Source of the DNA: Octopus sinensis
Lineage: Eukaryota
Direction of reading: 5' to 3'
DNA: 64,000 nt
Assembly: GCF_006345805.1 (NCBI RefSeq)
Contig: NC_043021.1
Span: forward strand, 25,544,001 to 25,608,000
Positions 28,065 to 56,320 of the stretch are shown here, piece by piece. Each line of letters opens with the position of its first letter. Within the stretch, counting starts at the first letter, position 1. The notes beneath the pieces are model-generated. The model was not told the DNA's origin. It was given only the letters and a program-made list of their open reading frames with translations, and made no database searches. Both the position numbers and the translations under genes were made by a program.

Positions 28065-28499
28065 TATATATGAAAAAAGGTTTGAAAATGCAATTTAAAC
28101 GATGTTTATTTACTTAACCGGTTTCACTCTTTGGTAAAAGATTGTCAAAAGTAACTTTGAATATTATGGGTTCAAAAAAAGTTTTTTACATAATTGTCAC
28201 ATTGAATATTATGAATTCAAAAATGTTTTTTTATACATAATTGTCACATTACATGTATAAATATAGTATAAAAAAGTTCAATAGTATGATGAGAATATTT
28301 GGAAAAATTGGCAGAAAAGAATAAAACAAATATATTATTGGAAATTTGGTTGCGTTAATTATTGGTTGTCGCCAATTGTCACATTACATGTATATATATA
28401 CAGTCTTTGGTAGAAAGGACATGTTAAAGACATAAGGAAGTGTAATAGTTTGGTGAGAAAGCTTGTAATATTGACAGAGAAAATTAAAATGGATATTTT
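28065..28499. repeat. 3' pseudo-LTR (left arm of inverted repeat)
   Basis: Reverse complement of 33782-34216 with no differences at spot-checked positions. Contains an internal ~45-bp tandem duplication and a minus-strand AATAAA. Confidence 0.95.
28110..28154 (-). ncRNA. Minimal type-I hammerhead ribozyme-like motif (U3-A8 variant) in 3' pLTR
   Basis: TTACTT-TTGACAA-TCTTT(TACC)AAAGA-GT-GAAA-CCGG-TT-AAGTAA: 6-bp stem I, 5-bp stem II, palindromic loop III. Confidence 0.6.
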
Positions 28500-28714
28500 A
28501 GACATCTCAGAATATTTTGAATCGAAGGCGAGAATTTGTTTTTTACTGACCTGTTTGTTTTAGCAGAAAAGTTGGATTGAGAGAAAAAAAGATATGTACC
28601 CAGTTTGGTTTATACTTCCCCTTCAAGCATCAGTGATTTTGGGGTTATTGGGAGGTGAGTATGCGGGTGTGAATAGATATGTCCGTGTGCCTGCTGGTCA
28701 GACAGCGTCTGTTT

Positions 28715-29985
28715 GTCACACACATATATACACACACACACAACAACAATACACACACACCACATACACACAACACACACACACAGAACACACACACACA
28801 CAACGCACCCACATATATAATATATACACACAGCACACAAATATAACATGTATTTATATATAATATACACACATATATAACACATACACACACAACACAC
28901 ACACACACACACACACCACACACACAACACAACACACGCACACATATATACATAATATAAATATCACACAAATACACCTAGCATATATATACACATACAA
29001 TACACATACACAGCATGTATATAATACACATACACAATATATGCATGCAATATACATACGCAATACATACATATAATATATATATATATAGACAATGCAT
29101 ATACATATATACATATATACATATAAATAGTGTTTACATACACATACATAGATATACCACATATACACACAATATACATACATACAATGCATACACATAC
29201 ACGTACGCATACATATAATATATATAGACACACACACACATAACATACATACACAATGCATACATATATATACACGCAACGTATATACATGTATTCATGT
29301 ATATATAGCACACTTACAATATACATATATACAATGCACACATACACACATATATACACTTAATTGTACACATACATATACAGTACACATACATACAATA
29401 TACATATACACAATGCGCATGCAAATAATGCACATGTTTATACACACATATACATGAAAATATATATACACACACACACATACACACACACATATATATA
29501 TATACACATATATATATATATACACATATACATACATGCACATACATATATTTTTTCACACACATACACACACATATATATATAAAATTCACACACACAC
29601 CCACACACACAAAATACAAACCTATAGCGTACACACTCAAATATATCTACATACCGCACACACACACAAACAATGTACTCACATATACACACATACCATG
29701 CATATACACACATACCATGCATATACACACATATATATATATATAAAAACAAATACACATGTAAATACATACACACGTACACAATGCTCACACACACACA
29801 CACATACACACACACACGCACACAGTGCACACACACACACACACATATATACACACGTGCACACACACACACAACGCGCGCACACACACACACATACATA
29901 TACACACGCGCACACACACAACGTGCACACTCACACACACACACACAACACCCACACACATACATAACCTACATATATATAATGC
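28715..29985. repeat. Degenerate (CA/TA)n tract inside the Penelope 3'UTR
   Basis: ~1.3 kb of interrupted CA/TA dinucleotides. Confidence 0.95.
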
Positions 29986-30133
29986 ATGCGTGTGCGTGCC
30001 ACGTATGTGTGCGGTCAATGCCCGCTAGTGTGTCCTATGCGTGCCGATGCGCACATGTGCCCGCCCGCACGATATGCTGTGAGTGTGCGCGTGCCCCTGT
30101 GTGCCTGCTCTGGATGTGTGCCCAGGGGGTATG

Positions 30134-32408
30134 TTAGAGTATGTTTAGTTGTGGTCTGTATTTTTGAATAAGATTACATTCCTTATTTATTCGTGTTTGG
30201 TCTGTGGTGTTGTCCGAGCATTGGTATAGTGGGAAGACTAAGAATTTGGGGGACTTATTGTGTGCACAAAGGTCTAAGTGTCCACTTAGTGGTATCTGTC
30301 TTGTGGAGGGGTCCCTCAGTTGTTGTCGGTGAACTGTCATTCTTTCTCTGAGGGTAAGGCTCGTTTGCCCTATGTAGTCTTCGTGGCATCCTTCACACCT
30401 TATGACGTAGAGTAAATTTTTTGATGCGCACGTGAAATTATTTTTTATGATGAATGTGTGTCCCGAGTGGAACTTGTACGACGATCCCTCAATGAGGTGG
30501 ATGCAGGTCTTGCAATTGGGGCGACCACATTTTTTGATGGTGGGCGGGGGTTTGTGTTGTGTAATTTTGCGTTGGTGAGGAGGTTTTTTAGGGATTTAGG
30601 TTGTCTCTTACTTTTTATTATTTTATGAGCTGCCAGTATTTTTTTCAGGCGTGGGTCTTGATTTAGTTGTGGAATGTTGTTGTATATAATAGTGTAAGCT
30701 TCTGCATTCCTTGGGTTGTGTGTTGAGAGATAGGGGAGGCTATTTACTGTACTGTGGATGTGTTTGGGTTTTCGTAGGTCTTGAATGTTGATTGATTTGG
30801 CCCGTTCTATTCCGTTGTCTACTAGTGATGCCGGGTAATGTCTTTCGAGAAGAATTGCCCTTAGTTCCCGGAGTCTTCTATTTCGTGTTGTGTCATTTGA
30901 GACAATAGTGCAGATTCTTCTCGATAGGTTGAAGGGGATATTTGTCTTTGTGTGTTTTGGGTGATTGGAGGTGAATAGAAGGTATTGTTTAGAGTCAGTG
31001 GGTTTGTAATGGATGTCAGTTTCAATGTTGACGCCTTTTTTAATGATTAGGATGTCAAGAAAAGGGAGTTGGTCCTGACTATATTCCATTGTGAATTGAA
31101 TGTTGTTATTAACACTGTTGATAAGGTTTTTGAAGTCTTTAAGTTGGTCGAGTGTGTGGGACCATAGGATGAGGCAATCATCTAAGTAGCGTTTCCAGTT
31201 CTCCAACAGGTATTTGTGGAAAGACTGGCCGTACTTATATTTGGATTTTTCATAGATATGTGATTCCAGGTAGGCCATCACCAGGTTTGCATAGGTAGGT
31301 GCAACTTTCGTACCCATTGCAGTTCCTGAGACCTGTCTGTAAGCGTTGTTGTGGAAATACATGAAGTTGTTTTGCAGAATAAATTTGAGGCCCTCAATTA
31401 TGAATTCTTTTTTAATTCTTTCCGGGATCTCATTGGGATATTTATCCAGCCAGAATTTAATGGCTTCCAGTCCATATTCATGTGGGATTGTGGTGTAAAG
31501 ATTAATAACATCAAAAGAAACGATTAAGGTGTCTTTATCGGCATGTTTGGGGAGATGATTTAATAGGTCCAGGTCATCTCTTACAATACTTGGAATGTGT
31601 TTCAGTATTGGCTTTAAGATGATATCTATAAAGTTGCTAAGTCTGTGTGTTTCACAACTTGGGCCTGCCACTATTGGTCTCAGTTTGAGATCAGTGGGAT
31701 GTGGTATAGTGATGCAGGTTGAAGTGGACTTTTTGCAAGCTTCTGTGATAATTTGACTCTTGTGTATTTTTGGAAGCCCATAGAGTGTGCTGGTTTTGCA
31801 ATTAAATTTAGTAATGTAGTCGCATTCCTTTGCTGTCAAGTCATTCCGGTGTTGGTAAATGAGTGCCTTCAGTTTGGTCATTGTTTTGGATTGCTGGTAG
31901 TCGACTACTCTCTCATAGTATGTGGTATCCTCTAAAAGGAGAGATACAGAGTTTTTATATTGCTCAGTATTCATAACAACGACCGTACTACCCTTATCAG
32001 CTTCCTTTATTGTGACGTTATGATTGTCTCGTAGCGTATGGATGATTTCCCATTCTCTTTTACTGGTGTTGGGTTTGAGTTTAGGTTGTGGGAGTTCACC
32101 ATAAGGGAAGTTTGAGATGTAATCGCAAAATTTGTCTAAGGTTTTGTTTTGCCTTTTATGGGATTATAGTTGCTTTTGTTACGGACCATTGATTCGTCAT
32201 TATTATTAGTTTTCCTGTCAAAAAATTCCTCTGTGAGGCGTAATTTTCTGCAAAAGTGTGAGATGTCATCCTGTATTTCCCTCAGGTTAGGGTATTGCGG
32301 AGTTGGGGTGAATTTTAGTCCTCTTGAAAGGATTTTTATTTGTGGTGTCGACAGGTTTAGGTTAGAGAGATTCACTATTTTTGGTTTTTCGGGGTTGGTA
32401 TCTACCAT
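30134..32408 (-). CDS. Penelope-like RT-endonuclease polyprotein, two 1-nt frameshifts (~32148, ~30548)
   Basis: Motifs in order: IVNLS...LSRGLKFTPTP, KEADKGS, YGLPKIHK, LRPIV, SFDVINLYT, GTAMGTKVAP, RYLDD, LPFLDI, Cys linker CGRPNCKTC, endonuclease LLYVIRCEGC..YIGQT..RERM..H. Confidence 0.93.
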
Positions 32409-33746
32409 CTGGTGTCGTGGAAACTGATGCCCTTGCCTAAAAAAAGAATCCTGGGGGTTCTTCTATCTGCGGTATTTTGCTGTATGTGATTCTGTCCCCC
32501 GTTGATATGTTGTCTGTTGAAGAGGTTTTGGTTGTTGTGATTCTGTCCCCCGTTGATATATTGTCTGTTGAAGAGGTTTTGGTTGTTCCAGGGTCTGGGT
32601 TGTTGGTGTGGCCTCCTGGAAGAGTTTGGTTATTCCAGGGTCTGGGTTGTTTGTCCTGGGTGTAATGTTGGTTCCTTAGAGTGGGTTGGAAATTACATTC
32701 ATGGTTTAGAAGTGAATTCCTATATGTTGGGGGAGAACTCTGAGTTAGGAGCGGTTTGGGTTGGAATCTACAATCATAGTTCAGAGATGGTTTCTATGTG
32801 ATGGGTAGGATCTCCGAATCTGGAACGGTTCTTGTGTGGGTTGGGGTCTACGTTGTCTGGTAAAGTTTTGTCTTGTGATGATGGGTGTCTCGGTTCTTTT
32901 GATGGGATTGTAGTGCTGTCTGTAAGTTCTGTTGTTGTTGTTGTCGATGTTAGGGGTGGTGTGTGTTCGGTGTTTTGTGGTTGGTTTTCTTTGTTTTTGG
33001 CGAGGGGTGTGAGTTGAGGTAGATATTTTAAAATATGGGTTGCTTGAAAGGTGTTCCTTTGTGAACTCTGTTTCATAATTGGCGAACCAGCTGTTTTTTT
33101 CCATTCGCTGGAGGGATGTTAGTTCTTCATCCTCGCAGTTTTTTCTCCACAGTTTGGTGGTTTCATCAAGGAGTGCTCCTTCACAGTGTTTTGAGATTTC
33201 AATCTGCATTTCATTGTCAAGGGTCTTGAATTTTTCTTCACTGGCGTTGGCTCTGAGCCGCAAGAGTTCTACTTCCGTTTTGAATTTTTCAAAAGCTAGT
33301 TTCTCCCTGAGGTTTTTTTGGTTTTCTGGTTCATTTTGGATGGGTTTTATTTGTAGTTTTCTGGGTAGGATGATAGGGGTGGAGTTGAGCCACTTTTCAT
33401 AAATGTCAGCTTTGTTGCTATTTTTTATGAAATTCCAGAAGGCAAACTTACGCGCTTTGAGATTTTTACTCCAGGTGTTGTTAAGAGAGCTTTTAACTGA
33501 GAAGCAGTCTTTAGTTTGCTCCTGCTTTGGGAGCACTGCCGTCTCTATGGATTTCATTAGGTTTTGCAGTTGGGTTGGGTGATGTAGGGATTGATTGGTT
33601 GTTTTGGCCTCCATGAGTCCATTTAGGTATAAGTGCGATTGTTCGACTTTGTTTATTATGGTTGAAAGTTTCGAGGAGATTTCTTGTAATTCTTTTAGGA
33701 TATTTTGGTTCATTAAAGATTCTGCTTGTTGTGATTTGGGTGGCAT
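32402..33746 (-). CDS. Upstream ORF1 of the Penelope-like element (coiled-coil-like N-half, Q/N/R-rich repetitive C-half); open 33746-32781, extension to 32402 inferred
   Basis: A 321-codon ORF starts 35 nt inside the 5' pLTR with heptad-like K/E/L-rich segments. Its repeat peptides continue in shifted frames (QPRPWNNQ x2, NNQNLFNRQ.INGGQNH x2). Confidence 0.65.
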
Positions 33747-33781
33747 TTTCGGGACTCGTGTGATGTTTATATATATATAAA

Positions 33782-34216
33782 AAAATATCCATTTTAATTT
33801 TCTCTGTCAATATTACAAGCTTTCTCACCAAACTATTACACTTCCTTATGTCTTTAACATGTCCTTTCTACCAAAGACTGTATATATATACATGTAATGT
33901 GACAATTGGCGACAACCAATAATTAACGCAACCAAATTTCCAATAATATATTTGTTTTATTCTTTTCTGCCAATTTTTCCAAATATTCTCATCATACTAT
34001 TGAACTTTTTTATACTATATTTATACATGTAATGTGACAATTATGTATAAAAAAACATTTTTGAATTCATAATATTCAATGTGACAATTATGTAAAAAAC
34101 TTTTTTTGAACCCATAATATTCAAAGTTACTTTTGACAATCTTTTACCAAAGAGTGAAACCGGTTAAGTAAATAAACATCGTTTAAATTGCATTTTCAAA
34201 CCTTTTTTCATATATA
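33782..34216. repeat. 5' inverted pseudo-LTR (right arm of inverted repeat)
   Basis: Reverse complement of 28065-28499. Confidence 0.95.
34127..34171 (+). ncRNA. Same hammerhead-like motif in the inverted 5' pLTR (antisense to the element)
   Basis: Identical to the reverse complement of 28110-28154. Confidence 0.55.
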
Positions 34217-55319: not shown

Positions 55320-56320
55320 AGGGTGGAAAGGAACACACGAGTTGATATATATGAAAAAACAAGTCAAAAATAGAAAATGCTAAGATAATTTTATAGTGAA
55401 TCTTTCAGTACCGGTTTCGGTCATTTTGAGACCTTTTCAACTGTAATGATTAAATAATTAAATTTAGAAAAATTAGAAGAAAAGTTTTTTTAAAAGAATA
55501 TTTCTGTAGTAGTGTTCAGATATAAGTAGCATTCTGCCTTTCTCTGACTCCCTTGTTTGCACTTGTGTGTTCGAGGTCGTTTTGAGTTCTTGGTAGGATA
55601 GGTGAAGAATAATGAGGCTGATGTGGAGAGGGGGTGTGGAAATCTGGGAATGCCTTAATGGTCGTATTTTGAATGGTCAGTGGCTGACAGTAGTCGCAGT
55701 TCAATTCAGGAATTGTTTATGGAATTTGTGTAGGCGTTATACTGAAAGACATTAGTGACAAGGTTAAGGGGTGGAAGGTGGAGAAGTAGAAGAAGAAGAA
55801 GATGACGATGTTGATGATGATGATGATGAAGAAGAAGAAGGAGAAGAAGAAGGAGAAGGAGAAGATGGTGGTGATGATGGTGGTGATGATGATGACGACG
55901 ATGATGATGATAATGATGATGATGAAGAAGAAGAGGAAGAAGAAGAAGAAGAAAAAACAGAGAAGGGAGAATATGAATGGGTGTAAGTATAGCTGTGATG
56001 GGGCTGATTAGTAATGGATTCTCTGGAGTGTAATATTTGTGTGTGTATATATTTCTTTTATTCTAAAGTTGAGGTATATTAATTGTTTGTCGTAGACCTG
56101 TTAAGAAGTGGCTTGTATTTTGTAATAAAGAGATTTTCTTTACTTATTTGTTGTCTCGAGGTTGTATCGTCCCTAAATTGGTAGAGGGGAAAAATTCTGA
56201 AGTTTGGTGTTTTTTTGTTGGCGCAAGTATCTATGTGTTGGCTAAAAGCTATTTTTCTGTTTTGGGGAATTTTTATCTGGGATCTGTGCAGGGCTATTCG
56301 TTTACGCAGGGCCATTCGTT
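55320..56320 (-). mobile_element. 3' fragment of a second Penelope-like family (GIY-YIG C-terminus, 3'UTR, pLTR)
   Basis: LRKRIALHRSQI...FSQHIDTC...NFRIFPLYQ...KENLFITKYKPLLN aligns by eye to the C-terminus of the 30134 endonuclease. Has a hammerhead-like motif and a similar CACACGAGT...TATATATGAAAAAA end. TA-flanked. Confidence 0.85.
55406..55443 (-). ncRNA. Minimal hammerhead-like motif (U3-A8 variant)
   Basis: CAG-TTGAAAA-GGTC(TCAAAAT)GACC-GAAA-CCGG-TA-CTG. Confidence 0.65.

Follow-up and report, generated by a model that had tools for sequence, protein, structure and literature searches.

A predicted −1 frameshift site with ribosome-length stop spacing in a two-ORF, endonuclease-bearing Penelope-like element of Octopus sinensis

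We examined a 64,000-nucleotide (nt) stretch of the Octopus sinensis genome (RefSeq assembly GCF_006345805.1, contig NC_043021.1, positions 25,544,001 to 25,608,000), hereafter called the window and the source of all coordinates below. On its minus strand, a single Penelope-like element (PLE) spans 34216 to about 28028 and comprises an inverted 5′ pseudo-long terminal repeat (pseudo-LTR), an upstream open reading frame (ORF1), an ORF that encodes reverse transcriptase (RT) together with an endonuclease (EN) of GIY-YIG type, and a 3′ pseudo-LTR. It is a young, two-ORF, endonuclease-bearing (EN+) retrotransposon of this kind. The 5′ pseudo-LTR (33782..34216, plus strand, inverted with respect to the element) adjoins a (TA)n tract, and its 435 nt recur at 28499-28065, oppositely oriented and with 100% identity; the 3′ pseudo-LTR (28065..28499, minus strand) is followed by a short tail and a (TA)n tract at 28028-27986. 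Direct or inverted pseudo-LTRs are expected of an EN+ PLE, and this identical 435-nt pair is of the inverted kind. A 3′ untranslated region with many (TG/TA)n repeats occupies 28500..30133, and PLE copies are scattered inside many chromosome-scale contigs of the same genome.

ORF1 lies at 32402..33746 (minus strand, as are the features that follow). In the window copy, the ATG at 33746 opens an ORF of 321 codons that stops at 32783-32781; in intact siblings ORF1 has 448 codons, the window copy being one base short at ~32790 and ~32627. A conserved part predicted to be all-helical (33021..33746), without a Pfam or PDB match, precedes a variable, low-complexity, basic tail (32445..33020; Q/N/R/P-rich, net charge +25) that includes a 51-nt tandem repeat at 32485-32587. 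The heptamer T TTT TTA (32438..32444), in X XXY YYZ register, is followed by a spacer of 11 codons with no significant fold (32405..32437) and by the 0-frame stop codon of ORF1, TAG (32402..32404). The −1 frame, which reads RQGHQFPRHQMVDTNPEKPKIVNLS at the junction, is closed upstream of the heptamer by a TAG read directly at 32463..32465 and continues downstream as the ORF for RT, a zinc-finger-like linker and GIY-YIG (30134..32438; window copy one base short at ~32150 and ~30547), with a non-conserved ATG at 32406..32408. This downstream ORF matches PF00078 (RT, E 9e-8) and PF01541 (GIY-YIG, E 6e-5). The C-x4-C-x2-C linker, which together with the endonuclease domain spans 30152..30529, fits CX2-5CxxC: the window copy has CGRPNCKTC, and its counterparts in sister families are CGRPNCGIC and CARSNCGTC. 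Direct reading of the minus strand bore out every position that a first-pass annotation, made from the sequence alone, had given for ORF1, the heptamer, the stops and the ATG.

A junction search of the genome gave 41 matches from the 40 scored of 100 candidates, and 30 copies were examined. The first-pass annotation had assumed two 1-nt corrections in order to join ORF1 to the frame of the heptamer, and both proved real, with an extra base at 32790 in 25/29 siblings and at 32627 in 27/29. The RT-EN ORF of the window has a further 1-nt gap at ~32150 (extra base in 27/29 siblings) and a fourth at ~30547, where the base is present in contigs of 4/4 sequencing runs; contigs of 4/4 runs also carry the missing bases at 32790, 32627 and 32150. 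The RNA status of these contigs is only guessed, and they are uninformative on level, strand and rare splice forms. The four private 1-nt gaps, three of them in homopolymer runs, represent either recent damage or assembly error. Also private is a cluster at 33573-33592 of three 1-base gaps and three extra bases, net in frame, at which 12-13 of 13 siblings differ. Continuity of ORF1 to the stop at 32402 is found in natural copies: L003 and L010 run uninterrupted from the same ATG for 448 codons and end in IPFL-GKGISFHDTRW-stop (Phe-Leu, 11 codons, stop), and in copy L007 the −1 frame is open over all 563 codons to the end of the locus. The register assigned to the T run held. The seven T of the window are not the family state: a C stands at 32445 in 28/29 siblings, leaving the family with exactly six T before the A (T6A).

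Within the window's family, T TTT TTA is intact in 27/29 junctions (one lost T, one substitution; the junction of one of the 30 copies was unmatched by the search pattern), and in most siblings the −1 frame is open for only 8 codons upstream of it. A genome search with the ORF1 core returned 1394 candidates, of which 150 were scored and 40 loci picked for long open frames. These 40 further loci make up six more families (51-58% ORF1 identity) plus one subfamily, and T TTT TTA lies directly upstream of the RT start in 36/40 (three have no RT start and one no junction). Its register agrees with the nearest RT match in 34/36, the other two carrying a later indel, and the sequence flanking the heptamer is otherwise unalike among divergent families. 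Five copies are intact in both ORFs (L032, L040, L042, L052 and L053; ORF1 of 411-497 codons, −1 ORF of 770-775 codons). Sixteen additional loci, not counted as independent, fall in the same families, with a junction in 13/16, all T6A, and three without an RT start. As a control for chance, an in-register T6A or T6G was present at only 3/7291 other ORF1 codon positions. The heptamer noted in the window thus recurs in −1 register as T TTT TTA in seven families of this genome and as T TTT TTA/G in 12 loci outside it, and the junction has what defines a canonical −1 signal: a heptamer in register and conserved, with a −1 frame open downstream and closed upstream.

Relatives outside the genome carry the same signature. 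A profile search over 1.84 billion representatives yielded ORF1 relatives that group into 961 clusters at the 50% identity level (longest among the best 150 of 961, 546 amino acids (aa)). Phe-Leu occurs within the last 40 residues in 68/81 full-length ORF1 relatives (the 81 of 154 proteins with at least 330 aa), compared with 4/81 in each of two upstream control windows. Residues whose codons cannot end in T (K, E, Q, M and W) do not occur directly before Phe-Leu (0/68; background 18.5%; P 9e-7). This C-terminal pattern is, to judge from the protein sequences, the shadow of T TTT TTR. In the outside loci the Leu codon of the heptamer is TTA or TTG, either of which keeps the run of six T. RT relatives (best 120 of 509) were named from Mytilus, Saccostrea, Ylistrum and Solemya, the longest having 839 aa, and the position of the first Met wanders among these 120 sequences. 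RT scans of public contigs gave 87 loci; 46 show the RT start, and in 12/46 a long 0-frame ORF leads up to an in-register T6A or T6G. These 12 include all 7/7 that match the ORF1 profile and show the junction. No fused ORF1-RT protein was present among the proteins of 785-2240 aa searched, which is weak evidence, and scans of metagenome and viral contigs for ORF1, and of viral contigs for the RT start, gave no match.

Taken together, these data make it very likely that the RT-endonuclease is produced by −1 ribosomal frameshifting at the conserved T TTT TTA. The gag-pol-like two-product strategy that the first-pass annotation had proposed for an EN+ PLE is supported by the register, the conservation and the lack of a fixed start codon, all of them sequence evidence.

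We then compared the distance from the heptamer to the ORF1 stop in 20 DNA junctions, namely one per family, the 12 outside T6A/G loci and L115 (A AAA AAC, short overlap), leaving out ten A AAA AAC loci with long overlaps and loci without an in-register heptamer. The spacing is 10 codons in 9 junctions, 11 in 2 and 12 in 2, followed by 14, 17, 19, 20, 20, 20 and 30. In the 68 proteins it is 10 codons in 24, 11 in 5, 12 in 3 and 13 in 3, with the rest up to 38 and none under 10. Under a null sampled from the RT-coding stretches of these elements, 3% of stops would fall at 10 codons and 51% under 10; the resulting binomial P values (at 10; none under 10) of 5e-9 and 7e-7 for DNA and 6e-19 and 1e-21 for proteins are overstated, related elements having been treated as independent. 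The nine 10-codon (30-nt) spacers average only 35% identity, the 10-codon cases sit on several branches of a quick RT tree (fetched sequences only), and the first RT motif lies at a distance that varies between 18 and 66 codons. Low spacer identity and variable distance to the RT motif together indicate that the stop tracks the heptamer and that RT coding does not fix the 10-codon stop. A C follows 7/9 of the ten-codon stops (background 16%), a pattern noticed post hoc; C after the stop is the slowest, weak termination context.

A downstream hairpin or pseudoknot, which canonical −1 signals have 5-9 nt after the heptamer, was rejected as the stimulator, since in 19/20 junctions the folding energy of the 80 nt that follow is no better than that of shuffled sequences. 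The window family scores z +1.7, which leaves the weak CATC...GATG stem suggested by the first-pass annotation unsupported. A simple pseudoknot score exceeded all 30 shuffles only in L080.

In E. coli reporters without RNA structure, a ribosome stalled at a slow UGA placed 5-11 codons beyond a slippery heptad stimulates −1 slippage, which peaks at 9 codons between the two (Smith et al. 2019, PMC6815119). A yeast disome preprint puts the smallest gap between collided ribosomes at 10 codons and describes longer disome footprints at the stop of an upstream ORF (10.1101/2023.02.01.526718). Since the floor and the mode of the spacing match this collided gap, we infer that a terminating ribosome blocks the next one on UUU UUA; the 11 codons of the window's family are in the near-collided range. 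In the mechanism we propose, most ribosomes would make the ORF1 protein, with its helical oligomer-type core and basic tail, and would terminate slowly at the ORF1 stop. A trailing ribosome would meet the terminating one with UUU and UUA or UUG in its decoding sites and, unable to translocate cleanly, would slip back one base and continue through the roughly 770 codons that encode RT and endonuclease. Heavier ribosome loading and slower termination would then both raise the proportion of enzyme. Granted frameshifting, collision is the probable main stimulator, and we lean slightly towards the complete account, in which an ORF1-RT-endonuclease fusion arises by a −1 shift and the roadblock is a ribosome that pauses at the ORF1 stop rather than an RNA fold. 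We regard as evenly balanced the broader proposition that animal retrotransposons of a widespread group have a programmed, structure-free −1 shift, in which a stop in weak context, one ribosome length behind the slippery site, makes the terminating ribosome the obstacle.

Besides the overstated P values, several observations weigh against a collision-driven shift. The window's own family is at 11 codons and three of the seven families are at 20, 20 and 30; among the proteins, 44/68 are not at 10 codons and 33/68 are beyond 13, and two shorter proteins have Phe-Leu fewer than 10 residues from the end (both look cut in the core, not the tail). At 20 codons the stop falls on the conserved K-I-I-N-L-S stretch encoded in the RT frame, of which it may be a by-product. 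The recurrence of 10, 20 and 30 codons in six of seven families is for that reason no more than a weak hint of queue periodicity, the 20-codon cases sharing ancestry and overlapping the RT motif. The L080 junction has a good hairpin (z −3.5). Nor is the stop-spacing rule general to PLEs: ten more distant loci (L099, L109, L119, L126, L129, L130, L140, L143, L152 and L155) form a separate RT group with a long ORF1 and A AAA AAC, in which the heptamer lies no further than codon 16 into the RT frame and the dual-coding overlap is 186-209 codons long; the endonuclease part of the profile found no match in the loci of this group that were fetched. From the literature, eukaryotic collisions are reported to give +1 shifts and decay (PMC6701860), and a figure legend in Craig et al. 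pairs the PLE frameshift with a pseudoknot (PMC8557442).

It is possible, if less probable than not, that the same heptamer slips unstimulated or is driven otherwise (by scarce Leu tRNA, a nascent peptide, a bound protein or a missed fold), the spacing being kept for another reason such as a fixed length of the C-terminal peptide or RNA refolding after termination. U UUU UUA slips at a low rate without any stimulator, all of the heptamer evidence fits this account equally, and the spread of spacings above 10 is wide. Against it, the spacer residues are unconserved, and neither a hard floor nor a peak at the exact disome gap is predicted by it. In SARS-CoV-2 a nearby 0-frame stop acts by letting the pseudoknot refold (PMC8168617), yet there is nothing to refold in 19/20 of our junctions.

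Separate translation of the RT ORF, whether ribosomes start at the ATG at 32408 or reinitiate close to the ORF1 stop after terminating, is highly unlikely. This ATG, from which the first-pass annotation had allowed independent initiation, stands 4 nt before the ORF1 stop in the window's family and is shared by one sister family, but it is not conserved and is absent in 5/7 families, which carry ATA, ATA, CTA, CTG or TTG at that position. The first Met of the RT frame falls at codon 11, 58, 57, 11, 153, 154 and 106 in the seven families, and in the five that lack the ATG it lies (codon 57-154) inside conserved RT motifs. An initiating ribosome would have 17 AUGs upstream in ORF1 to pass, and the in-register heptamer would be left unexplained. 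An ATG overlapping the heptamer in two distant elements, L094 and L114, counts in favor of a separate start and against frameshifting there. The ATG at 32408 itself would most simply be a by-product of a TAG to TGG change, as three sister families have a stop there (A-TAG or A-TAA in place of A-TGG).

A shade less likely still is splicing, with TTTTTTAG as the acceptor and a spliced RNA joining a short upstream exon to the RT frame. Introns are known in PLEs (PMC8557442), a G follows the heptamer to read TTTTTTAG in all seven families of this genome, and the codon after Phe-Leu can begin with G in 46/68 proteins. However, the required AG, whose use as an acceptor had been named in advance as evidence against frameshifting, is missing in 6/20 junctions (three TTTTTTG-T and three TTTTTTA-T), a G-starting codon is excluded after Phe-Leu in 22/68 proteins, and no family has a CAG or a C in the T run. 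At least three contigs, from runs whose RNA nature is a guess, pass through 32437 with no joint there, a weak point in that rare forms are dropped and the contigs may be DNA. Least likely is that one fused ORF was interrupted by an accidental indel, or that the polymerase restores the fusion by slipping on the T run during transcription. Among the copies, 1-nt homopolymer indels are many, and in L049 and L050 private shifts in the tail of ORF1 fuse the two frames. Even so, no family has one fused ORF, the offset is the same, and sits at one heptamer, in all seven families and in the 12 loci outside the genome, none of the 29 siblings has a T inserted in a run of only six, and no relative exceeds 546 aa (best 150 for ORF1) or 839 aa (best 120 for RT).

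HIV-1 gag-pol uses U UUU UUA with a downstream stem-loop and a long overlap; the octopus element has the same heptamer and the same order of structural protein then enzyme, whereas it has no stem-loop and an overlap of 10-30 codons. The Athena/Terminon elements of bdelloid rotifers have a T6A site, and, like them, the present element places an ORF1, here with long helices in the predicted model, ahead of RT with a predicted −1 shift joining the two. Unlike them, it has a GIY-YIG endonuclease and copies that are dispersed rather than telomeric. Athena is described as two-ORF (PMC13159263). Canonical EN+ PLEs are called single-ORF (Craig et al. 2021, PMC8557442), and in contrast to Neptune and Nematis, whose CX2-5CxxC linker it shares, the element has a separate ORF1 of 410-500 codons that overlaps the RT frame at the slippery site. 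A killifish Neptune has two ORFs, non-overlapping, with an ORF1 of 420 nt (PMC12602865). The Fig. 1 legend of Craig et al. on animal PLE types mentions an ORF1 separable by a frameshift, with a pseudoknot (PMC8557442), so the novelty implied in the first-pass annotation for a frameshifted ORF1 as such was overstated, while its frameshift reading for an EN+ PLE is supported. Compared with those pseudoknot-bearing two-ORF PLEs, there is no conserved pseudoknot or hairpin here and the ORF1 stop spacing is fixed instead, although the legend may already cover some EN+ clades. The E. coli reporters of Smith et al. (PMC6815119) likewise have a heptad upstream of a stop, no RNA structure and a peak at one ribosome length (9 codons there, 10 here, by the same counting); they are engineered and bacterial, whereas the signal here would be natural, selected and eukaryotic. 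Our literature search found no slippery site in EN+ PLEs and no natural stop-spaced −1 signal, with figures and Repbase/Dfam outside its coverage, so that a prior description is possible; the accessible parts of PMC6431247, PMC3846280, PMC5408684 and PMC5718144 hold nothing on this signal. Layouts of two ORFs with a frameshift between them have known counterparts; the new part is the structure-free, ribosome-length stop spacing.

The single-ORF picture is hereby corrected for a large group of EN+ PLEs, with 961 ORF1 clusters and RT relatives in mussels, oysters, scallops and Solemya, and the frameshift layout explains why the RT ORFs of these elements lack a fixed start codon. Ribosome collisions in eukaryotes are usually treated as a damage signal. 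If the collision mechanism is right, these elements would provide a natural eukaryotic frameshift driven by collision, and their ratio of enzyme to structural protein would be a sensor of ribosome load and termination speed. If the spacing does reflect collision-driven slippage, it would also supply hundreds of natural 40-nt cassettes for testing collisions as a programmed recoding cue, along with a new rule (heptamer, then 10 codons, then a stop) by which other genomes, and viruses, could be searched for frameshift sites that work without RNA structure.

An AlphaFold2 model of ORF1 residues 1-240 (alignment of 8; predicted local distance difference test score of 79) consists of long helices of 28-45 residues. 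The segments called coiled-coil-like in the first-pass annotation hold up only in this sense, as long helices in a predicted model. ORF1 has no significant Pfam match, and its model has no Foldseek match at E≤0.001 in PDB and none in the ESM Atlas. A trimer prediction made without an alignment scored 0.02 and has no bearing either way. With its variable, disordered-looking, basic tail, ORF1 is probably an RNA-packaging protein, by analogy with other retroelement ORF1 proteins.

Among the loci fetched, L094:1-3500 and L114:440-5487 belong to EN+ PLEs that are only distantly related (RT identity about 28%); they have T TTT TTA, and the stops follow 11 and 14 codons later. Their ORF1 is unrelated to that of the octopus element and had no match in Pfam or PDB sequence searches; by eye its C-terminal part resembles an SGNH/GDSL esterase (motifs GDS... 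and DGxH). At L115:1215-1260, an A AAA AAC is followed by a stop exactly 10 codons on, and the spacer contains AACCC/AACCCTA-type repeats like reverse-complement telomere repeats. Loci L071-L077, P0191, P0202, P0234 and P0269 are animal retroelements in bacterial genome bins, labelled bacterial and likely to be host contamination.

As for the canonical hammerhead ribozyme expected in the pseudo-LTR of an EN+ PLE, neither an Rfam match (E≤1) nor a CTGANGA..GAAA core occurs in the window. A GAAAC-CGGT motif in the pseudo-LTR (28130-28110), present with a short stem in three families and with the stem before it in two sister families, is possibly a degenerate hammerhead half-core. Before the ORF1 ATG, in the window (33750-33800) and in sister families, there is a short inverted repeat of the CTCGTG...CACGAG type with a 35-45-nt loop, followed by GAAA-ATG; it may be a junction made during priming. 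Elsewhere in the window, at 56100-56315, lies another PLE endonuclease fragment, 47% identical.

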